A DNA stretch of 24,000 bases, from the NCBI GenBank assembly GCA_016716635.1, contig JADJVZ010000011.1:1448585-1472584 (forward strand), written 5' to 3'. The position numbers and the translations under genes were made by a program. This DNA comes from Micropruina sp. (lineage in GTDB: Bacteria; Actinomycetota; Actinomycetes; Propionibacteriales; Propionibacteriaceae). The notes under the pieces are model-generated. The model was not told the DNA's origin. It saw nothing but the letters and a program-made list of their open reading frames with translations, and did no database searches. Shown piece by piece: positions 1,198 through 13,874 of this stretch (position 1 is its first letter; every line of letters starts with the position of its first letter).

Positions 1198-2088
1198 TCA
1201 GGTCGCCGCCTGTTCGTTCGCGAGCCGCGCCCGCCGCAGCAGCGTCACCGTGGGGTCGAGAGCGGCCGGACGAGCGTCCGGGCGCAGCGGCAACGCGGGC
1301 CACAGGGCCTCCGGCAACACCGGCGGCGGCCAGACGGTGTGTACCGGCCCCGGGACGAGCGGACGAGTGGCCTCGGGGACCTCGGCCTGGACCAGTGGGT
1401 TCACCCGGGGTCCCGGCTGAGGGGCCGGACGCGGAATCGGCCGGACAGCAGGAGGCTTGGTCTCCACCGTCGACCCCCCTCTGCGCGTCTCCCGGGACAC
1501 CTCGCCTCTCGACGGGCCTTCCTCCGACGCCGCCTTTCGCGCCCGAGGCCGCACGAGGGGCACGTCCGGCGCCCCGGCGCGGGGTGGGGTTCGCGGCGGG
1601 GTCCGCGGCGGGAGGAGCGTGGGCCGCGTCGATTCCGGCGGCTCGGCGCGTCCCACGCTGGGTGCCGAGGACGGCCGGACCGGCGCCGGGAGGGCCTGAG
1701 TCCGGGAACCCGAATGCACTGGCTCCCCCGCCGGGGTCACCTTGGGCTCCTTGGGGGCAGCCATAGGTGGCGGGGGCGGTGCCGCTGCCGCGCCGGGTGT
1801 CGCAGCCCGTGGCGCGGTGCGGGGCGGGACCTCGGCGGGACGGGGTGCGGCGGCGCGGGGCGCGCTCTCATCCATGCTCCACCGCACGGGACGGAACTCC
1901 TCGCCGCGGCGCTTAGCCTGGCGCGCGTCGGCGCGAACACGCTCGGCCCAGAAGGCCGGCGCGCCGTCCAGGTCGAGACCCGCCGGCGCCGGATCGATCG
2001 CCTCGGCGGCGCCACGCAGCAGGCCCGCGAGCCGGCTACGCCATGGGTGTCGGGGTCGCTGCGGAAGGCGTGGGTGCTGCGGAGGCAT
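1198..2088 (-). CDS. Proline/arginine/alanine-rich hypothetical protein at the tape-measure/assembly position of the CIS operon
   Basis: 296-aa ORF, same strand as the operon. Its stop (1198-1200) lies 1 nt before the next start. ATG 2086-2088 is the first start after an in-frame stop at 2119-2121 and overlaps the tube gene by 53 nt. The middle about 170 aa are low complexity (PPRTPPRTPPR, AAAPPPPPMAAP). The termini look ordered (AFWAERVRADARQAKRRGEEF; ALDPTVTLLRRARLANEQ). The functional assignment is by gene position only. Confidence 0.45.
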   Translation of the reverse strand: MPPQHPRLPQRPRHPWRSRLAGLLRGAAEAIDPAPAGLDLDGAPAFWAERVRADARQAKRRGEEFRPVRWSMDESAPRAAAPRPAEVPPRTAPRAATPGAAAAPPPPPMAAPKEPKVTPAGEPVHSGSRTQALPAPVRPSSAPSVGRAEPPESTRPTLLPPRTPPRTPPRAGAPDVPLVRPRARKAASEEGPSRGEVSRETRRGGSTVETKPPAVRPIPRPAPQPGPRVNPLVQAEVPEATRPLVPGPVHTVWPPPVLPEALWPALPLRPDARPAALDPTVTLLRRARLANEQAAT

Positions 2089-2542
2089 CGTCGAGCTCCA
2101 ACCGGTCGTAGGCCAAGGTCAGGGATTCGATGGCGATCTCATTGCCGCCGGCGTTGAGATTCGGGGCGGCGAGCTTGCAGGGCCAGGCGCCGATCAGGTT
2201 CATGCGGCGAACCTCGCGGGAGCTGGAGTCGTCCAGGATGGCGATCGACACGTTCTCGCGGCGGACGCGCCCCTGCAGGGCCTCGAAAAGCCAGCGGATC
2301 ATCGTCGTGGAGTCCGTGAGCCCGTACCGCAGGGTGACGGGCGCGTACTCGACCCGTCCGGGGATGGCCCGCACCTGGGCGTGCTCACCCCCGGCGCGAT
2401 AGAGGATGCGCTCGATGCTCACCCCGAGCCCCTCGATGGTGACGAAATGCGCCTGCACGGCCCCTTGGAACTCGAACTTGAAGTTGTACGCCCGGTACGG
2501 GTCTTGCGGCATTCCCGGGGAATTGACGGCTTGGGTGGTCAT
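2036..2542 (-). CDS. Phage tail tube protein (T4 gp19-like / eCIS Afp1-class inner tube)
   Basis: 168-aa ORF with DPYRAYNFKFEFQGAVQAHFVTIEGLGVSIE...PGRVEYAPVTLRYGL...WPCKLAAPNLNAGGNEIAIESLTLAYDRLEL, the typical conserved phage tail tube pattern. ATGA overlap with the sheath stop (2539-2542). Confidence 0.85.
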   Translation of the reverse strand: MTTQAVNSPGMPQDPYRAYNFKFEFQGAVQAHFVTIEGLGVSIERILYRAGGEHAQVRAIPGRVEYAPVTLRYGLTDSTTMIRWLFEALQGRVRRENVSIAILDDSSSREVRRMNLIGAWPCKLAAPNLNAGGNEIAIESLTLAYDRLELDDASAAPTPSAATPTPMA

Positions 2543-3780
2543 CGCGCACCTCCTGCGGCTTGAACGGCGGCCTGGTCAGCCGATTGGCTCAGCTGGAAGA
2601 CGACGAACTCGGCCGGTTTCACCGGCGCGATACCGATCAGGGTCACGACGCGTCCGGCATCGCGGACCTCCTGCGGATTGGTCTCGGCGTCGCACTTCAC
2701 GAAGAACGCCTCCTGCGGGGTCTCCCCCACCAGGGCACCGGATCGCCAGACGTTTGTGAGGAAGGCCGTGACATCGCGTCGAAGTGCCGCCCACAAGGGG
2801 TGATGGTTGGGTTCGAAGACCGCCCAGCGAGTGTTCTTCAGCACCGTTTCTTTGATCATGTTGGTGAGCCGACGGACGTTGATGTAGCGGAACTCGCTGG
2901 CCTCAGCGTCGAGCGTCCGGGCTCCCCACACGAGGATTCCCTCACCGGGGAAGAAGCGGATGCAGTTGACCCCCGCGGGGTTCAGCAGTTCCTGCTCGCC
3001 CTTGGAGACGGGCCGCACCAGGCCGAGGGCACCCGCGACCCCCGTGTTGGCGGGCGCCTTGTGGACGCCGCGGGTGGCGTCCGTCCGGGCCCAGACCCCG
3101 GCGAGATGCCCCGAAGGCGGGGCCGTCACGTGCTGCCCGGTGATCGGGTCGGTCACGATGAGCCAGGGGTAATAGGTGGCCGCATACCCACCCTGGGCGA
3201 TCGGCGGACGCAAGCCCTTGGTCACCGGCGCGGGCTGCGCAGGGGGTCCGTCACCACCGGCCGAGGGTGGTGGCGCCACAGTGCCCGTCCCCACCTGCGT
3301 GAGAAGCCCCACGTCGTCCACGTCTTCGACCGTGTCGAGGATCGCCACCCGGTCTTGCCGGAGCACGTCTTGGCAGTGGTTGATGAGGGCGTCGTAGGAG
3401 GCCGGATCGGTGAAGCCGGGCGCCGCCACGATCGCCACGTCATCGACGGCCTCCAGCAACGTGAGCCCCGTCGGCTTCTTCGCGGTGCCCGTGAGGCTGG
3501 TGCCCGCGCCGATGTTCACGACGTAGGCGCGGCTGCCCCCGTTCTGGAAGAAGCCGAACACGGCGGTGCTCAGGTGGGTGCCTGCCGTCGCATCACCGAC
3601 GAAGATGCGGACGAACTGCGTCCAGTTATCGATCGGCACGACGACATCGGCGGGGGCGGTCGGGCTGGGTGCCCGTCCGATGATGCCCAGGCTGCTGGTG
3701 CCGACCTGGCCGAAGGGTCGGGTACCACCCGGCACTTCCTCGACGTAGACCCCTGGCGCGCGGTAGTTCGGCATGGTCAT
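2539..3780 (-). CDS. Phage tail sheath family protein (contractile sheath)
   Basis: 413-aa ORF. The N-terminus YRAPGVYVEEVPGGTRPF and the C-terminal block GVNCIRFFPGEGILVWGARTL...FRYINVRRL are hallmark sheath motifs. ATGA overlap with the upstream gene stop (3777-3780). Confidence 0.9.
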   Translation of the reverse strand: MTMPNYRAPGVYVEEVPGGTRPFGQVGTSSLGIIGRAPSPTAPADVVVPIDNWTQFVRIFVGDATAGTHLSTAVFGFFQNGGSRAYVVNIGAGTSLTGTAKKPTGLTLLEAVDDVAIVAAPGFTDPASYDALINHCQDVLRQDRVAILDTVEDVDDVGLLTQVGTGTVAPPPSAGGDGPPAQPAPVTKGLRPPIAQGGYAATYYPWLIVTDPITGQHVTAPPSGHLAGVWARTDATRGVHKAPANTGVAGALGLVRPVSKGEQELLNPAGVNCIRFFPGEGILVWGARTLDAEASEFRYINVRRLTNMIKETVLKNTRWAVFEPNHHPLWAALRRDVTAFLTNVWRSGALVGETPQEAFFVKCDAETNPQEVRDAGRVVTLIGIAPVKPAEFVVFQLSQSADQAAVQAAGGAR

Positions 3781-5104: not shown

Positions 5105-5127
5105 TGGCCGAGCGTACGCGCTGCCGG

Positions 5128-5209
5128 TACCGAAGAAGGGACTTGAACCCTCACGCCTTGCGGCACAGGAACCTAAATCCTGCGTGTCTGCCAATTCCAC
5201 CACTTCGGC
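5128..5209 (-). tRNA. tRNA-Leu, anticodon TAG (type II, long variable arm)
   Basis: Minus-strand sequence: GCCGAAGTGGTGGAATTGGCAGACACGCAGGATTTAGGTTCCTGTGCCGCAAGGCGTGAGGGTTCAAGTCCCTTCTTCGGTA. Hand-folded elements:
- acceptor GCCGAAG/CTTCGGT
- anticodon stem CAGGA/TCCTG with loop TT-TAG-GT
- long variable arm
- T-arm GAGGG-TTCAAGT-CCCTT
- discriminator A
CCA is not encoded. The ORF-track peptide VELADTQDLGS is the usual tRNA-Leu read-through artefact. Confidence 0.85.
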
Positions 5210-7497: not shown

Positions 7498-8073
7498 TCA
7501 TTGGAGTATGCGGTCGACGAACTCATCGATGGCGGCGTCGACGGATAGTCCGGTATCGATGGGCGTGGTGAGGTGATCGAGCATGAGCCCGTCGATGGCG
7601 TAGTGAAACAGGGCGATCTCGGACCGCCCCCCTGGCAGGCCAGCGCCGTCGTTGAATCTGACATCCTCCTCGAAAGCTCGCTGTCGCCACGCCCCAAGCG
7701 CCTTGGCGACGGCAGGACGCCGTGCGGCTTCTAGCCGCAGCTCGAAGAGCGCGAGTGACACGTGCGGGTCAACACTGAGTCGCCGGACGACGTCACGCAG
7801 GTATTCGGCGAAAAGCTCCCGGTCGGGAGTCCGAGCAGTGCGTGAAGAAGCAGCCTCGGGTTCGGGTGTGAGTCTCTCTCCGATGCGGTCGACGAGCGCG
7901 GAGATGAGATCGTCGCGGGTCGGGAAGTAGTTCGAGGCAGTGCCGCGCGGCGTGCGGGCGGCGGCGTCAACAGCACGGTGAGTGAGGCCGCGGGCTCCTT
8001 GCTCGGCCAGCACTCGGATCCCGGCGTCGGCGAGAGTGGAGCGTCGTTCGTCGTTGCGAGCCATGTCGCCCAT
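7498..8073 (-). CDS. TetR/AcrR family transcriptional regulator
   Basis: 191 aa. The N-terminal HTH is RRSTLADAGIRVLAEQGARGLTHRAVDAAARTPRGTASNYFPTRDDLISALV. The start could instead be ATG 8062-8064. Divergent from the DHFR-family gene. Confidence 0.85.
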   Translation of the reverse strand: MGDMARNDERRSTLADAGIRVLAEQGARGLTHRAVDAAARTPRGTASNYFPTRDDLISALVDRIGERLTPEPEAASSRTARTPDRELFAEYLRDVVRRLSVDPHVSLALFELRLEAARRPAVAKALGAWRQRAFEEDVRFNDGAGLPGGRSEIALFHYAIDGLMLDHLTTPIDTGLSVDAAIDEFVDRILQ

Positions 8074-8108: not shown

Positions 8109-8122
8109 ACGACATGTGTCGT
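8109..8122. promoter_or_regulatory. Candidate TetR operator in the divergent intergenic region
   Basis: ACGACA-tg-TGTCGT has 6-bp perfect inverted arms. It lies 14 nt upstream of ATG 8136 and about 40 nt from the TetR start. A further CACGAC half-site is at 8085-8090. Confidence 0.3.
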
Positions 8123-8135
8123 GATTGGAGATGCT

Positions 8136-8711
8136 ATGAGGAACCTCGTCTACTACGTCGCCGTCAGCATCGACGGATACATCGCTGACCCGACGGGCGG
8201 GTTCGATGCGTTCCTGGTCGAAGGTGACCATGCGTCGGTCGTGTTCGGGGAGTACGCGGATGCGCTGCCGGTGCACGCGCATGCGGCGCTGGGAATTGAA
8301 CCGCCGAAAACGCGATTCGACACGGTGATCATGGGGTGGAACACGCTCACCCCCGCCCTCAATCTCGGAATCTCAAGCCCCTACCCCCATCTGCGTCAGA
8401 TCGTTGCGAGCCGCCACCCACGCGACGTCGACCCGGCAATCACCGTTACTGACGATCCCCTCGCCATGGTCCGCAGCCTGAAGCGGGAAGACGGTTTGGA
8501 CGTCTGGGTCTGCGGTGGTGGCGAGCTCGCAGGTTCGCTTCTGTCGGAGATTGACCGCCTCGTCATCAAGCGCCACCCCGTCGTTTTCGGCGCTGGCATT
8601 CCCCTGTTCGGCAACGCCCCCTACGATCCGCACGCGTTCGCTTTGACCGGAACCCGCTCCTTCGAGTCGGGTGTCGTGATCGAGGAATACGACTCCAGCG
8701 GCCGAGCGTGA
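8136..8711 (+). CDS. Dihydrofolate reductase family protein (RibD C-terminal domain type)
   Basis: MRNLVYYVAVSIDGYIADPTGGFD...VIMGWNT...DVWVCGGGELAGSLL...IDRLVIKRHPVVFGAGIPLF is the typical RibD_C/DHFR-like pattern. I chose ATG 8136 (GGAG at 8127-8130, 5-nt spacer) rather than the track GTG 8121. Confidence 0.75.
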   Translation: MRNLVYYVAVSIDGYIADPTGGFDAFLVEGDHASVVFGEYADALPVHAHAALGIEPPKTRFDTVIMGWNTLTPALNLGISSPYPHLRQIVASRHPRDVDPAITVTDDPLAMVRSLKREDGLDVWVCGGGELAGSLLSEIDRLVIKRHPVVFGAGIPLFGNAPYDPHAFALTGTRSFESGVVIEEYDSSGRA

Positions 8712-8770: not shown

Positions 8771-10096
8771 CTACATCGAGACTGTCGGCCGCTCGTAACG
8801 GTGCAGGTCCGCATCGTCGATGGCGAAGGTCCGGACGGGGCCGGGGCCGGTGTCGCGGGTTTCGAAACGGACGGTGACGCGGCCGAGCCCGGAGCCCCAG
8901 ACCCAGCCCTGGCCGAGGGTGTCGTGGACGACGTCTTGCCCGGCGTACCAGCCGCTGCCCCGCCGCGGCGCCGCCCCGGACACCTCGCGCACGGTGTCGT
9001 CGGTCACCTTGCCGCCGCCCACATCGAGGTCGAAGAGCGCCTCCTGCGCGACGTCGGTGAACCCGGCGACGCCGACGCCGAGCAGCCGCACGCCCGCGCT
9101 GTGATCCACGCCGCGCAAGAGCTCGGTGGCGACCGCGGCGATCACCTCGGGGCGATCCGTGGCGCCGTCCAAGGTCCGCGAGCGGGTATACGTCGTGAAA
9201 TCGGGCAGGCGGACCTTGAGCTGGATCGTCCGCGCGAACCAGCCGTGCGCAGTGACCCGCTCGGCGACGGTGCCGGCATCGCGGACGATGATCCCGGCCA
9301 ACTCGGCGTCGTCGGTGATGTCGATCTGGAAGGTGTCCTCCACCGAGATCGACTTGGTCTCGCGCTCGGCGCTCACCGGACGATCGTCCCGGGCGTGGGC
9401 GAGCGCGTGCAGGTTCTCCCCCATCGCCTTGCCCAACTCCCGCACGAGCTCTTTGACGCTCAACGCTTGGACATCGGCGACGGTGGCCACTCCCAGTTTC
9501 GACAGTCGATCCATGGTGGCCGGACCGACGCCCGGGATGGCCCGGGCGGGCAGCGGAGCGATGGTGGCAACCTCGCTGCCGGGAGCCACGAGATGTTGGC
9601 CGTTCGGTTTGGCGAGTTCCGAGGCGACCTTGGCCATGAACTTCGACGACCCCATGCCCACCGAGGCGGTGAGTCCCCCCGTGGCCTCAGTCAGGCGGGA
9701 GCGTAGATCCGCGGCGAGGGCCTCGATCGCGTCGGCTTCCAGGGAGCGGTTGGGGTCAGTCGCGAGGTCGACGAAGGCCTCGTCCAGGCTCAACGGCTCG
9801 ACCAGCGGCGACAGTTCCCGCAGCAGGCCCATGACGATGTCGGACGCCTCGCGGTACGCCCCGAAGCGTCCGCCGAGATAGGCCGCGTTCGGGCACTTGC
9901 GACGGGCTTCCGCCGTCGGCATCGCCGAGTGGACGCCGAACACCCGCGCCTCGTACGACGCGGTCGAGACCACCCCCCGCAGGCCGATGCCCCCGACGAT
10001 GACGGGTTTTCCGCGTAGGGAGGGTTTGTCCCGCTGCTCGACGGAGGCGAAGAACGCGTCCAGATCGAGGTGCAGGATCGAGGCGGTCGAGCGCAT
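8771..10096 (-). CDS. dinB: DNA polymerase IV (Y-family translesion polymerase) with C-terminal extension
   Basis: 441 aa. ILHLDLDAFFASVEQRDKPSLRGKPVIVGG and SIDEAF-like LSLDEAFVDL are catalytic motifs. The last about 90 aa (GQDVVHDTLGQGWVWGSGLGRVTVRFETRDTGPGPVRTF) look like the small G..V.H..fG.G.V domain seen on some actinobacterial repair proteins. ATGA overlap with the folA stop (10094-10098). Confidence 0.9.
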   Translation of the reverse strand: MRSTASILHLDLDAFFASVEQRDKPSLRGKPVIVGGIGLRGVVSTASYEARVFGVHSAMPTAEARRKCPNAAYLGGRFGAYREASDIVMGLLRELSPLVEPLSLDEAFVDLATDPNRSLEADAIEALAADLRSRLTEATGGLTASVGMGSSKFMAKVASELAKPNGQHLVAPGSEVATIAPLPARAIPGVGPATMDRLSKLGVATVADVQALSVKELVRELGKAMGENLHALAHARDDRPVSAERETKSISVEDTFQIDITDDAELAGIIVRDAGTVAERVTAHGWFARTIQLKVRLPDFTTYTRSRTLDGATDRPEVIAAVATELLRGVDHSAGVRLLGVGVAGFTDVAQEALFDLDVGGGKVTDDTVREVSGAAPRRGSGWYAGQDVVHDTLGQGWVWGSGLGRVTVRFETRDTGPGPVRTFAIDDADLHRYERPTVSM

Positions 10097-10611
10097 CAGC
10101 GCCGAACGTAGATGACGAAGTCGAAGCCCGTTCGCGGCTCGCGGGATTCCTCGACCCAGACCTCCGGATCGATGGCGGGGAAGAAGGCGTCCCCCTCGGG
10201 CTCAGCGTCGACCTCGGTGATGTCGAGGCGGGTCAGACGTGGCCAGGCGAGCTTGTAGACCTCGGCGCCTCCGCCGATGTAGACCGGCAGTTGCGGATCA
10301 GCGACGGCCAGCGCCTCGTCCAGGGTGGAGACCCACACCGCGGAGGTCCCGGGCGCCAACGCCCCCGGATGCTGCGCGCGAAACGCCTGCTCGGCCCCGT
10401 CCGGATCACGCGTCAACACGATGGACGCCCGCCCCGGCAGCGGCTTGCCGATGCCGTCGAACGTCCGCCGCCCCATGATGAGCGAGGTGCCCTTGGTGAC
10501 GGCTTTGAACCGCTTCCAATCCTCCGGCAGGTGCCACGGGATGTCGTTCGCACTGCCGATGACGCCGTTCCGCGCGACGGCGGCGATTGCGGTGAGCTCC
10601 ATGGCCCCCAC
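10096..10611 (-). CDS. folA: Dihydrofolate reductase
   Basis: LTAIAAVARNGVIGSANDIPWHLPEDWKRFKAVTKGTSLIMGRRTFDGIGKPLPGRASIVLTRD...VYIGGGAEVY is the canonical FolA pattern. The start is GTG 10609-10611 or ATG 10600-10602. Confidence 0.85.
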   Translation of the reverse strand: MGAMELTAIAAVARNGVIGSANDIPWHLPEDWKRFKAVTKGTSLIMGRRTFDGIGKPLPGRASIVLTRDPDGAEQAFRAQHPGALAPGTSAVWVSTLDEALAVADPQLPVYIGGGAEVYKLAWPRLTRLDITEVDAEPEGDAFFPAIDPEVWVEESREPRTGFDFVIYVRR

Positions 10612-10633
10612 CCTAGTTAAGAATCCTGATTCC

Positions 10634-10680
10634 GTGACGTCGCAGACTTCCTGACGACATCCAGCAAGTCAGGGCGTCAC
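10634..10680 (+). promoter_or_regulatory. Nested inverted repeats (candidate operator) in the folA / unknown-gene divergent region
   Basis: The outer repeat is GTGACG (10634-10639) / CGTCAC (10675-10680). The inner repeat is CCTGAC (10650-10655) / GTCAGG (10668-10673). An extended -10-like TGgTATATT follows at 10695-10703, only 7 nt before ATG 10711, which implies a leaderless or near-leaderless transcript. Confidence 0.3.
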
Positions 10681-10710
10681 AAACGTCGAACCGGTGGTAT
10701 ATTTTCCGGC

Positions 10711-11319
10711 ATGAAACCCTATCCGCTTGCGTCTGACGTAGTCAGCGACCTTGGCCAAGAGTTCCTGCGAGCCTTCGTTGAGGCCGTTGAAGGTGCCGAG
10801 CGGGATCGTCTTGATCATATGGCAGAGCATCCTGACTGGTACGGCACCTACCTGCAGCGTCACGTGGCGTCCTTCCTCCACGAGCGAATCTGGGGGCGGT
10901 TGCTGCCCACGCTGAGCGGGATGGCAGGGGTGACGATGATCGACTTGGAGCCGGAGCGCAGCGTCGCGATCGGGAGCCGGTACCACGTTCGTTTCAAGCG
11001 GCATCGGATCGACGGTGCGATCAGCACCTTCCGCACGGACAGTGCACTTCGGTTCTGGAGCAACCGTGTCGAGCCTCTCTCGCCTGACATGGAGGTCTGG
11101 TCGCTTGCCTTGGGCTACCTATGGGATGACGACCGCATCCAGTACCCACTGATTTCGCTCCGCGAGTCGATGGACAAGATCGTGTGGGTCCGTCCCCTCC
11201 AGGTCGCTGCCGACGGGGCAGGCGGGCAAGAGGTGACCGCGCTCACGGTCGAGACCGTGGACCTGCCGGACTTCGACCTCACCACGTTGACCGACGAGGA
11301 CATTGCCGAGGCGGAATGA
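10711..11319 (+). CDS. Hypothetical protein, 202 aa, no recognisable motif; partner of the XRE-ImmA/IrrE gene
   Basis: An ORF with a clean ATG behind a strong -10-like hexamer. Its stop TGA 11317-11319 overlaps the ATG 11316-11318 of the next gene. Hand-counted GC is about 60% over rows 10681-11160, against about 68-70% in neighbouring genes. The C-terminal tail is acidic (DLPDFDLTTLTDEDIAEAE). Confidence 0.6.
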   Translation: MKPYPLASDVVSDLGQEFLRAFVEAVEGAERDRLDHMAEHPDWYGTYLQRHVASFLHERIWGRLLPTLSGMAGVTMIDLEPERSVAIGSRYHVRFKRHRIDGAISTFRTDSALRFWSNRVEPLSPDMEVWSLALGYLWDDDRIQYPLISLRESMDKIVWVRPLQVAADGAGGQEVTALTVETVDLPDFDLTTLTDEDIAEAE

Positions 11320-12368
11320 ACACCATCGGCGATGCCATCAAGGCGGCTCGCAGATCGCTGGGGCTTACTGGTGGACAGTTGGCCACAGCCATCGGCGTCA
11401 CCCAAGCGGCCGTATCCCGCTACGAGAATGGAGAGCGCGAACTCGACCCTCCCACGCTTCAAGCGGTCGCGGATGCCCTCAAGGTCACACCCGAGTTCCT
11501 GAGGGCTGGACAAGGCTTGGAGGGGCCCATCGCAATCGACGCTCACATGCGGCGCCGAGCGACCAGCAAAGTCTCAGACTGGCGGCGTGCTGAAGCTCAA
11601 GTGAACCTTCTGTGGTTGCAGGCCAACAGGGTGGCCGAGGCGACCGAGATGACCCCGAAATTGATGCTGCCCGTCGTCGACCCGTTCGACACCTCCCCCG
11701 AGGCGGCCGCCCGGTTGACCCGCGGGCAATGGCACATGCCATTGGGGCCGGTCCGAGGGCTTACGCGCTGGGTTGAGGCGGCGGGAGTATTCATTGTTGT
11801 CAGGGACCTTGGCACCCCCCGCATCGACGGAATGTCCCAACGGCGCGGGGCCGTGTCGGTGATCCTGCTGAACTCGACGGCCCCCGTTGATCGTCGGCGC
11901 CTGACGCTCGCACACGAACTCGGACATCTCGTGCTTCATGGTGAGTACGCCGAACCCGACATGGAAACCCAGGCCAACCAGTTCGCCGCGGAACTGCTGA
12001 TGCCCGAAGCTGCGATCAAGCCGTTCCTGCACGACCTGACCCTGGCCCGCCTCGAAGCACTCAAGCTGGAATGGGGCGTGTCCATGCATGCCCTCATCCA
12101 GAGGGCCGTGGCCCTCAGGACCATGGATCGGCCCCGTCAAACCGCTCTATACAAGCAACTCTCGTCACGGGGTCAACGAGTCCGGGAACCAGGCTCGGAC
12201 CGACTCCCCGACGAGCCACCACAGATGATCGCCGGTCTGGCGACCAACCTCCGCTCACAAGGGGTCTCAGAGGCCCGGATCGGGGGGCTTATCGGGATCG
12301 CCGACTTCCTACACCCCGCCTCGCTGTTCCCACCGCCACCCGGTCCGGTTCTGTCCCGCGTCAAATAG
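11316..12368 (+). CDS. XRE-family HTH fused to ImmA/IrrE (COG2856) zinc metallopeptidase
   Basis: I trimmed the track ORF (11184..12368) to ATG 11316. The N-terminus IGDAIKAARRSLGLTGGQLATAIGVTQAAVSRYENGERELDPPTLQAVADALKV is an XRE HTH. HELGHLVLH (HEXXH) followed by ETQANQFAAELLMPE is the ImmA/IrrE signature. Confidence 0.8.
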   Translation: MNTIGDAIKAARRSLGLTGGQLATAIGVTQAAVSRYENGERELDPPTLQAVADALKVTPEFLRAGQGLEGPIAIDAHMRRRATSKVSDWRRAEAQVNLLWLQANRVAEATEMTPKLMLPVVDPFDTSPEAAARLTRGQWHMPLGPVRGLTRWVEAAGVFIVVRDLGTPRIDGMSQRRGAVSVILLNSTAPVDRRRLTLAHELGHLVLHGEYAEPDMETQANQFAAELLMPEAAIKPFLHDLTLARLEALKLEWGVSMHALIQRAVALRTMDRPRQTALYKQLSSRGQRVREPGSDRLPDEPPQMIAGLATNLRSQGVSEARIGGLIGIADFLHPASLFPPPPGPVLSRVK

Positions 12369-12402
12369 CAGCAAGACGCCCAGGATGAGCGTCCGACTTG
12401 AG

Positions 12403-13080
12403 TCACCGTGCCAAGCTGTGCACCCAACGGTGGATCAACCGGTGCACGCCGGGATCCATCGTCGGGCCGAAATGGCCCCCGACCCCGAGTTGGATGTTGG
12501 TCGCCCCCTCCAGGTGCGAGCCCCCCGTCACCACCTGGTCGTACCTCGGGCTCAACGAGACGATCCGGTCGGTCCCTTCCGGGCTCGGCTGAGGGCGGAA
12601 CATTCCGAATGGCGTTCTCTCGGCCCAGTTGGGGACCAATGCGGTGCCGTGCCAGGGCGTGCACGTGGTGATGCCCCCCGCGAGGCGCGGCGCGAGGGCC
12701 GGGTCGCGGAGCGCGGACTGGGCGATGAGCCCACCTTTGCTGTGGCCCACGAGGGTCACGTTCTGCAGGTCGTGGGCGATCAGGACGTCGGCGACGGCCC
12801 GCACCGACGGCTCGATCGCGCGCAGGTTCCAGCCGAGCGCCGGTAGGACGTAGACCGGATGCCCGGCGGCGCGCAGCGAACGCGCGAGGGGCAGTAAGAA
12901 CCGCCACGGCTCCAGCACCCCCGGGATCATCACCACCGGACGCGCCGCGCACGCCGCGTCCGCCCCCGCGGGAACGATCGCCAACGCCTCGGGGGGCGTC
13001 CGATCGAGCACGCCTGCGACCCGGCGCCACAGGGCGCGCCCCCAGTCGACCAGCGCCGGACCGGCGTCGCGCGCCTCCAT
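12403..13080 (-). CDS. Alpha/beta hydrolase (lipase/esterase-like), translationally coupled to thyA
   Basis: The real CDS is the 3' part of the track ORF 12403..13695. ATG 13078-13080 overlaps the thyA stop TGA 13080-13082. The nucleophile elbow is VTLVGHSKGG (GxSxG), preceded by PVVMIPGV (oxyanion region). Confidence 0.7.
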   Translation of the reverse strand: MEARDAGPALVDWGRALWRRVAGVLDRTPPEALAIVPAGADAACAARPVVMIPGVLEPWRFLLPLARSLRAAGHPVYVLPALGWNLRAIEPSVRAVADVLIAHDLQNVTLVGHSKGGLIAQSALRDPALAPRLAGGITTCTPWHGTALVPNWAERTPFGMFRPQPSPEGTDRIVSLSPRYDQVVTGGSHLEGATNIQLGVGGHFGPTMDPGVHRLIHRWVHSLAR

Positions 13081-13874
13081 CAGACCGCGATGGGGGCCTT
13101 GATGCCCGGGTGCGGGTCGTAGCCCACCAACGAGATGTCGTCGAGGGTGAAGGCGTCGAGCTCGGTGACGGCCGGGTTCAGCTGCAGGGTCGGCAGCGAA
13201 CGCGGCTCGCGCGTGAGCTGCAGCCGCGCCTGGTCGAGGTGGTTGGAGTAGAGGTGCGCGTCGCCGAGGGTGTGGACGAAATCGCCGACCTCGAGTCCCG
13301 TCACCTGCGCGACCATGTGGGTCAGCAGCGCGTAGGACGCGATGTTGAACGGGACGCCGAGGAAGACGTCCGCGCTGCGCTGATACAGCTGGCAGGAGAG
13401 GCGTCCGTCCGCCACGTAGAACTGGAACAGCGCGTGGCAGGGCGGCAGCGCCATGTCGTCGAGCTCGGCCACGTTCCAGGCGCTGACGATGTGACGCCGA
13501 CTGTCGGGGTTGGACTTGATCGCCTCGACGATCTGCGTGATCTGGTCGACCGTCGTACCGTCGGGCTTCGGCCAACTGCGCCATTGGTGGCCGTAAATCG
13601 GGCCGAGTTCGCCCTCTTCGTCGGCCCACTCGTCCCAGATGGTGATGTTGTTGTCGTTCAGCCAGCCGATGTTGGTCGAGCCTTGCAGGAACCACAACAG
13701 CTCGCCAAAGACGCTGCGGGTGTGGATCTTCTTCGTCGTGACAAGGGGAAATCCCTTCGTCAGGTCGAAGCGCATCTGGTAGCCGAACACGCTGCGGGTG
13801 CCGGTTCCGGTGCGGTCGGACTTCACGGCGCCGTCGTCCAAGATGTGCTGGAGCAGGTCGAGGTACTGCTTCAC
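13080..13874 (-). CDS. thyA: Thymidylate synthase (ThyA)
   Basis: 264 aa with [31 protein letters not shown]...[12 protein letters not shown]...[15 protein letters not shown], the canonical ThyA pattern. The GTG start 13872-13874 overlaps the rdgB stop (GTGA). Confidence 0.95.

Follow-up and report, generated by a model that had tools for sequence, protein, structure and literature searches.

A horizontally acquired two-gene cassette between folA and the thyA-coupled hydrolase of Micropruina sp. is probably a Rosmer-type toxin-antitoxin module

In a stretch of 24,000 nucleotides (nt) from a contig of Micropruina sp. (the whole of the DNA analysed, hereafter the window), two plus-strand genes lie between folA and an alpha/beta hydrolase gene coupled to thyA, all of which are on the minus strand, and the question raised by this locus is what such a pair is doing within a string of housekeeping genes. 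Gene 1 encodes a protein of 202 amino acids (aa) that belongs to no recognised family, and gene 2 encodes an XRE-family helix-turn-helix (HTH) fused to a COG2856 (M78) zinc peptidase. A preliminary description of this DNA had placed the pair correctly, and had viewed it as a horizontally acquired stress- or phage-sensing cassette. Our analyses indicate, with a probability of roughly 0.68, that the segment is a horizontally acquired toxin-antitoxin (TA) cassette of the Rosmer type (RmrT/RmrA), that is, of an anti-phage, abortive-infection-like kind of defence. The coordinates of the features discussed below are given in Table 1.

The acquisition of the pair can be read directly from the site that it occupies. 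The genes thyA and folA are normally adjacent, as had been assumed, and in all nine metagenomic loci with folA relatives thyA is located 9-60 base pairs (bp) from folA, with dinB following in three of them; thyA-folA-dinB is therefore the usual order. An empty counterpart of the site is present on contig L051, where the order is thyA'-hydrolase-folA-dinB', the hydrolase is 89% identical in aa sequence to the window copy and its stop codon is separated from the folA start by 10 bp. In blastn comparisons, positions 1-778 of the reverse-complemented L051 (L051rc) align with window positions 9840-10617 (91.4% identity) and positions 796-1825 with 12419-13448 (90.3% identity), and from these breakpoints it follows that window positions 10618-12418 replace 17 bp of the relative. 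The 17 bp include the last ~5 codons of the hydrolase gene, whose C-terminus is altered at 12403-12418 (225 aa, compared with 227 aa in the empty-site relative), and because the end residues differ from those of L051 the right junction falls within the hydrolase reading frame. The pair is thus a horizontally acquired insertion of 1.8 kb, which is absent from this site in relatives. The same locus is present on more than 20 public contigs. Neither a target-site duplication nor a terminal repeat of more than 7 nt marks the ends of the insertion, and the 1.8 kb encode no recombinase; transposon-like ends were rejected on the first two of these grounds.

The base composition of the pair agrees with this origin. 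Total GC content is 62.6% in gene 1 and 64.6% in gene 2, compared with 70.2% in dinB, 69.4% in folA, 72.6% in the hydrolase gene and 67.8% in rdgB; the lower values described earlier for the pair are thus confirmed, but the value of 68-70% given for its neighbours fails for thyA, which has only 65.0%. At third codon positions the pair is set apart clearly, the GC content (GC3) being 0.78 in gene 1 and 0.74 in gene 2 against 0.88-0.93 in dinB, folA, hydrolase, thyA, rdgB, and rph, the hydrolase being at the native level (0.90).

The assignment of the cassette to a known class depends upon gene 2. Its product contains an XRE HTH at about aa 4-62 (Pfam HTH_3 at aa 8-62, E = 7e-16) and an M78 zinc peptidase at aa 154-263 (Pfam Peptidase_M78, E = 5e-20), both above the Pfam gathering thresholds and followed by a further C-terminal region, and the fusion proposed in the preliminary description is therefore corroborated. 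The PADLOC model PDLC03949 for RmrA matches residues 8-322, i.e. the full length of the protein, with E = 6.3e-52, and 13 more RmrA models match below 1e-19. In 23 of 23 extracted gene 2 homologues the HELGH motif is identical and the sequence QANxFAAE(L/F)LMP is conserved. These matches identify gene 2 as an RmrA homologue in which the HTH and the HEXXH peptidase motif are both intact. The exact protein is found in public records as an "XRE family transcriptional regulator" from metagenome-assembled genomes (MAGs) of Micropruina sp. or Propionibacteriaceae from wastewater. RosmerTA has been named and validated as an anti-phage class (Millman et al., 2022, 10.1101/2022.05.11.491447; Ernits et al., 2023, PMC10440598), within which RmrA antitoxins partner diverse, unrelated RmrT toxins in phage defence (PMC10440598; 10.1101/2022.05.11.491447).

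The linkage of the two genes is strict. A gene 2 homologue is located directly downstream of the gene 1 homologue in every locus examined (more than 30, obtained from 6 protein look-ups, from the genomes of 18 Actinomycetota species scanned with a 10-sequence gene 1 alignment, and from GenBank phages and plasmids). The ATGA start/stop overlap of the two genes, previously pointed out, is present in the window, implying translational coupling of gene 1 and gene 2, and a 4-nt overlap (ATGA or GTGA) is found in all 23 loci with a correctly read junction. The pairwise identities of the gene 1 and gene 2 proteins are likewise correlated (r = 0.95). A tblastn search of GenBank phages recovered 8 records with gene 1 homologues, and gene 2 homologues of more than 45% identity are present in exactly the same 8 records, those of 24-30% identity being found in other phages. 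A scan of IMG/VR viral contigs with the gene 1 alignment found none, though the GenBank phages had yielded these 8 records.

The unit that is shared by different copies can also be delimited. Nucleotide homology of the window to loci L008 (88%) and L005 (76%) extends exactly from 10693/10694 to 12369/12370, between flanks that are unrelated, and the shared core of 1.68 kb ends 1-2 nt beyond the gene 2 stop. This core comprises the -10 box and both genes, and it is transferred as one piece among chromosomes, temperate actinophages, and plasmids. The pair adjoins an MmeI-type type IIG restriction-modification (RM) enzyme in one locus, a resolvase in another, and AbiEi with a primase-polymerase in another; it corresponds to gp35/gp34 of Gordonia phage Howe (L055), in a region with integrase, VapBC and immunity-repressor genes, and to gp28/29 of the M. 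abscessus prophage prophiGD44-1, and on Rhodococcus linear plasmids it is located at the end, beside IS256 and IS481 transposases. Among 102 flanking open reading frames (ORFs) from 21 loci, PADLOC matches were obtained for MADS, type IIG RM, AbiEi, AriA, HamA/HmaC, a type I methyltransferase, MkoC, and SoFic, components of Hachiman and Mokosh being among these matches, and the same ORFs also include ordinary metabolic genes. The homology to RmrA, together with strict linkage in unrelated contexts, supports the earlier view of a self-contained XRE-COG2856 cassette of TA or defence type with an uncharacterised partner. In phage Howe (L055, 225-1282), we also observed that a VapBC pair and a small metallo-protease gene lie no more than 4 kb from the cassette, between the immunity repressor and the integrases, and this grouping resembles a small defence/TA cluster in a temperate phage.

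Disrupted copies provide indirect evidence on the role of gene 1. A frameshift near codon 37 interrupts the gene 1 homologue of locus L030 (3056-3660), that of locus L031 (7996-8460) is without approximately residues 10-70, and in both loci gene 2 and the promoter box are intact; an intact gene 1 beside a disrupted gene 2 was found in no locus examined. Such one-sided decay of gene 1 is the pattern that would be expected for a toxin.

The sequence upstream of gene 1 contains signals that are suited to the expression of both genes from one promoter. A promoter scan gave 1 site compared with 0.4 expected, and its extended -10 element (TG-G-TATATT, 10695-10703) ends 7 nt from the ATG. Abutting the ATG is the 16-nt box TGGTATATTTtctGGc, which is conserved among 25 loci with otherwise unrelated upstream sequences. 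The distance from the -10 element to the ATG predicts a leaderless mRNA, with transcription presumably starting at the gene 1 ATG itself; leaderless mRNAs are common in Actinomycetota. The upstream repeats mentioned in the preliminary description do include an inverted repeat with 20-nt arms (10636-10655 and 10668-10687), but it is a weak one, the arms being 70% complementary. The core of this repeat is the candidate operator of Table 1, and loci L008 and L025 have CGAC-N10-GTCG at the same relative position, where both arms are changed and the symmetry is preserved; as the palindrome is seen in only three loci, its function as an operator is a putative one. We have further observed that the DNA of the 25 loci is conserved from -17 to +9 around the gene 1 ATG (window 10694-10719), through TTTTCTGGC into ATGA(A/T)TTCA, even where the proteins of two copies share only ~36% identity. 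Neither a promoter nor the first codons would require conservation of this extent, which could reflect a second operator or a requirement of leaderless initiation.

The mechanism that we propose for the Rosmer-type cassette rests on analogy with validated Rosmer systems and with ImmA and IrrE. The conserved extended -10 promoter would give rise to a leaderless bicistronic mRNA, and translational coupling would set the ratio of the gene 1 protein to the gene 2 protein. The HTH of gene 2 would repress the promoter, possibly via the palindrome upstream of it, and the remainder of the gene 2 protein would keep the gene 1 protein inactive. Upon a trigger, most likely a phage product, the zinc peptidase would switch the system by cleaving either the HTH part of its own polypeptide or the complex, in analogy to ImmA/ImmR and IrrE/DdrO, and the gene 1 protein thus released, a soluble putative enzyme of ~200 aa, would arrest or kill the cell.

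The least familiar component of this scheme is gene 1. Its product has no family match in Pfam, NCBIfam, PADLOC or PHROGs, in agreement with the preliminary description, which had recognised no family; it ends in an acidic tail, and it is placed in no housekeeping family. A comparison of 86 members of the gene 1 family with domain and defence models gave no consistent match, and relaxed Pfam scans of these members produced scattered singletons only, the most frequent of which, the Rv0078B antitoxin model (4 of 86 members, E>=0.007), was judged to be noise. The family is nevertheless not small: in an exhaustive profile search, with clusters defined at 50% identity, it numbers at least 234 representatives at E<=1e-3, of which 74 reach E<=1e-30. 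A search of the word index with the 86-sequence alignment yielded only 11 proteins and contributed nothing further. Public gene calls place the start of gene 1 at M37, which gives 166 aa, and have a 49-aa ORF (10669-10818) on the other strand across its N-terminus; the first 36 residues are conserved among homologues, and in view of this conservation and of the conserved promoter before the ATG at 10711 the 202-aa start is the correct one.

An AlphaFold2 model of the gene 1 protein, computed from the 86-sequence alignment, has a predicted local distance difference test score (pLDDT) of 92 and a predicted template modelling (TM) score (pTM) of 0.84. It consists of helices in residues 7-68, seven strands and one helix in residues 74-177, and an acidic C-terminal tail of lower confidence (block-mean pLDDT ~74-76 for residues 181-200). 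Residues R50, H57, D/E58, R83, R94, R/K97, H98, T109, G135, Y136, W138, and W159 are near-invariant in the family and K96 is conserved in 100% of it. The cluster of basic, His, Asp, and Thr residues is a probable active or substrate-binding site, and a cluster of Arg, His, Asp, Lys, and Thr suggests an enzyme that acts on a phosphate-bearing substrate, e.g. a nucleic acid or nucleotide. Two further ideas on gene 1 were considered. A HEPN-like Rx4-6H motif was set aside, since R50 and H57, six residues apart in a helix, have no support from fold or profile; a comparison with PD-(D/E)xK nucleases gave weak restriction-endonuclease matches, and the acidic motif is not conserved.

Several observations weigh against the Rosmer-type reading. 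The RmrT models of PADLOC gave zero matches to the window gene 1, to the 86 family members and to Howe gp35. In a control, two upstream partners of ~200-220 aa, gp35 of Gordonia phage Malibo (3e-12) and Tritos_40 (7.5e-10), did match these models, which have 212-227 positions and are thus near gene 1 in length. An hhalign comparison of the gene 1 family profile with small alignments of the Malibo and Tritos types yielded a probability below 1%. Foldseek searches with the gene 1 model found nothing significant in the PDB (best E = 0.06, TM<=0.30) and no significant match in BFVD, and the family profile has no match among PDB sequences at E<=10. Both disrupted gene 1 copies are from MAGs (of Dermatophilaceae and Nostocoides) and are possibly assembly errors, and the neighbours of the pair in the window are housekeeping genes, with no defence genes among them. 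For no Rosmer system in the literature cited here have the sensing of a trigger by RmrA or the use of its peptidase been established. Lastly, we infer by the analogies named above, rather than observe, the toxicity of gene 1, its neutralisation by gene 2 and protection against phage, and the sensing function of the cassette is presumed in the same way. Gene 1 thus occupies the position of RmrT and is not demonstrably related to the Malibo- and Tritos-type RmrT families. As RmrT toxins are diverse and unrelated to one another (PMC10440598), the lack of an RmrT match does not place the cassette outside the class. A distant homology of gene 1 to the Malibo and Tritos RmrT proteins, for which a PTxxAxxF motif in Malibo gp35, a like length and an acidic tail could be cited, was considered and set aside as not significant.

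A regulatory switch without a toxin is an alternative that we consider unlikely. Here gene 1 would be a sensor, a co-regulator or a substrate of the peptidase (e.g. anti-repressor-like), and the cassette would control its own or other genes without killing. In its favour, neither a toxin domain nor a transmembrane segment can be recognised in the gene 1 protein, its model is without a fold match, and M78 peptidases are best known as regulators, e.g. ImmA and IrrE (PMC10440598; PMC12828697). The flexible acidic tail also contains a conserved motif, which could be a site of protease docking or cleavage, a role that is speculative: 78 of 86 family members have P at position 183, where the window protein has V, and 84 of 86 have P at position 186, and D184, L185, D189, and L190 are kept among close relatives. 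However, a 1.68-kb cassette that moves alone has nothing else to regulate; the strict pairing, the 4-nt coupling and the one-sided decay of gene 1 are better suited to an addiction or defence module, and gene 2 is closest to validated antitoxins.

The tail motif is also central to a bolder version of the toxin reading, in which gene 1 represents a new toxin class with an unseen fold and an activity based on R50/H57/D58/R94/K96/H98/T109, and its DLPxFDL tail is bound or cleaved by the M78 peptidase, so that the pair would be a protease-gated effector and not a sequestration pair. We regard this conjunction of properties as rather improbable; if true, the cassette would be a tractable model for how RmrA peptidases control toxins.

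A still smaller likelihood attaches to the proposal that the pair is an immunity remnant of a prophage or integrative element, or that gene 2 regulates metabolism as an XRE-M78 protein of the RamB/PrpR type, gene 1 being an unrelated passenger. Homologous pairs are indeed found in the lysogeny region of temperate Gordonia phages, and gene 2 matches phrog_2439 ("transcriptional regulator") with E = 2e-69. Against a remnant, the 1.8-kb insertion has neither an integrase nor att-like repeats nor any further phage genes, and phage Howe has a separate immunity repressor, gp45, so that gp34 is not its immunity repressor. Regulators of the RamB/PrpR type consist of XRE, M78 and a C-terminal DUF2083 domain, and a search of gene 2 for a third, DUF2083-type domain gave no Pfam match at E<=0.1; gene 1, moreover, was never found apart from gene 2 in the loci examined, which speaks against an unrelated passenger.

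Scarcely credible, finally, is a DNA-damage switch of the IrrE/DdrO or ImmA/ImmR kind that controls dinB, folA or thyA or senses thymine starvation, for although the pair adjoins these genes and repressors in Deinococcus and ICEBs1 are cleaved upon damage through the action of M78 peptidases (PMC6868357; PMC10440598), the close relative L051 has the thyA-hydrolase-folA-dinB string without the pair, none of ~30 other pair loci has folA, thyA, dinB or the hydrolase within 8 kb, with the HTH joined to the peptidase in gene 2 the insertion has no separate XRE repressor gene, and nucleotide homology between copies ends at the -10 box and the gene 2 stop. The second and first of these findings also give no support to the earlier suggestion that the neighbouring dinB, thyA, and folA give a clue to a damage- or thymine-starvation trigger; the adjacency is therefore incidental.

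Table 1. Locations of the cassette, its signals and motifs, and other features of the window.
Feature	Position	Strand	Remarks
Inserted segment, relative to the empty site of L051	10618-12418		1801 bp in place of 17 bp
Minimal cassette (-10 box + gene 1 + gene 2)	10693-12370	+	Nucleotide homology to L008 (88%) and L005 (76%)
Gene 1	10711-11319	+	ORF of 202 aa
Gene 2	11316-12368	+	ORF of 350 aa
ATGA start/stop overlap of genes 1 and 2	11316-11319	+	Sequence reading
HELGH zinc-binding/catalytic motif, then QANQFAAELLMPE	11913-11927	+	Gene 2 aa 200-204
Tail motif x-D-L-P-D-F-D-L	11257-11280	+	Gene 1 residues 183-190; family alignment
Predicted promoter: -35-like GTCACA, 16-nt spacer, extended -10 TG-G-TATATT	10676-10703	+	Promoter scan
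Candidate operator CCTGAC-N12-GTCAGG, imperfect palindrome	10651-10674		Core of inverted repeat, just upstream of the -35-like hexamer
folA	10096-10611	-	Flanks the pair on the gene 1 side
dinB	8771-10096	-	Neighbour beyond folA
Alpha/beta hydrolase	12403-13080	-	Flanks the pair on the gene 2 side
thyA	13080-13874	-	Coupled to the hydrolase, which overlaps the thyA end; rdgB and rph beyond
TetR-family gene	7498-8073	-	GC3 0.72; divergent from the RibD_C gene
RibD_C-domain gene	8121-8711	+	GC3 0.78
tRNA-Leu	5126-5209	-	Sole Rfam/ARAGORN match in the window; distant from the insertion
Phage-tail-like tube gene (T4 gp19 family)	2036-2542	-	Pfam marks on identical public contigs
Contractile sheath gene (Phage_sheath_1)	2539-3780	-	Pfam marks on identical public contigs

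Some further features of the window were recorded. The thyA-folA-dinB string has a further lineage-specific guest in the hydrolase, which is located between thyA and folA in the window and L051, after folA (thyA-folA-hydrolase-dinB) in a 48%-identical, more distant relative (L052/L053), and it is missing from 9 more distant loci; a metagenome scan with the hydrolase as query gave no matches. The tetR and RibD_C genes have GC3 values as low as those of the gene pair, and this divergent pair beside dinB may be a second acquired pair. Scans of the window for Rfam families and tRNAs (ARAGORN) detected no RNA element near the insertion. The tube and sheath genes are probably part of an extracellular contractile injection system or of a prophage remnant.

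The identification of this cassette has consequences for the annotation of defence systems. Because the gene 1 family is outside the RmrT models tested, finders that require matches to both RmrT and RmrA would miss the cassette. The family is sizeable and is distributed over actinobacterial chromosomes, plasmids, and temperate phages of Gordonia and Mycobacterium, and its addition to the models would improve defence annotation in Actinomycetota. With a confident structural model that has no detectable relative and with invariant polar residues, gene 1 is a candidate for a new toxin activity. The precisely mapped empty and filled sites, together with the 1.68-kb core, also show how such cassettes land between housekeeping genes without a recombinase of their own.

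Among the known systems with which the cassette can be compared, the metabolic regulators of the RamB/PrpR type differ from it in the DUF2083-type domain that gene 2 is without and in that the genomic context of the pair varies and is not a fixed metabolic one. ImmA/ImmR of ICEBs1 and IrrE/DdrO of Deinococcus resemble gene 2 in having an M78/COG2856 zinc peptidase with HEXXH and an XRE-family HTH, and they probably share with it the logic of proteolytic inactivation of a DNA-binding or neutralising part. In contrast to them, however, the cassette has its HTH and peptidase in one polypeptide, it carries no element or regulon to control, and nothing but the accidental adjacency described above points to a connection with DNA-damage genes. 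The type II TA-like Xre-COG2856 modules that comparative genomics has predicted (Makarova et al., 2009, PMC2701414) are likewise mobile two-gene modules of a COG2856 peptidase with an Xre HTH and variable partners; these differ in forming a class at the level of prediction, and the gene 1 family is not known to be among the partners named for it.

The closest resemblance is to RosmerTA. Gene 2 is a full-length RmrA homologue with HTH and M78 peptidase including HEXXH, the order of partner followed by antitoxin and the start/stop overlap are shared with gp35/gp34 of Gordonia phage Malibo and 40/41 of E. coli phage Tritos, and the cassette is similarly mobile, being found in phages, plasmids, and defence islands. 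It differs in that the gene 1 protein is soluble, unlike the RmrT of Gordonia phage Kita, which depolarises membranes (PMC10440598). A second difference concerns RipAB (Spr1630/Spr1629) of S. pneumoniae, a Rosmer TA with a toxin acting on the sliding clamp DnaN (PMC12795458): gene 2 scores 93 bits with the NCBIfam model for spr1629-family antitoxins, for which the cut-off is 335, and hence it is not an equivalog of RipB. The best-supported conclusion from these comparisons is that the cassette extends the known RosmerTA class and introduces no new principle, and that it does so with a partner family not previously recognised as a Rosmer partner.

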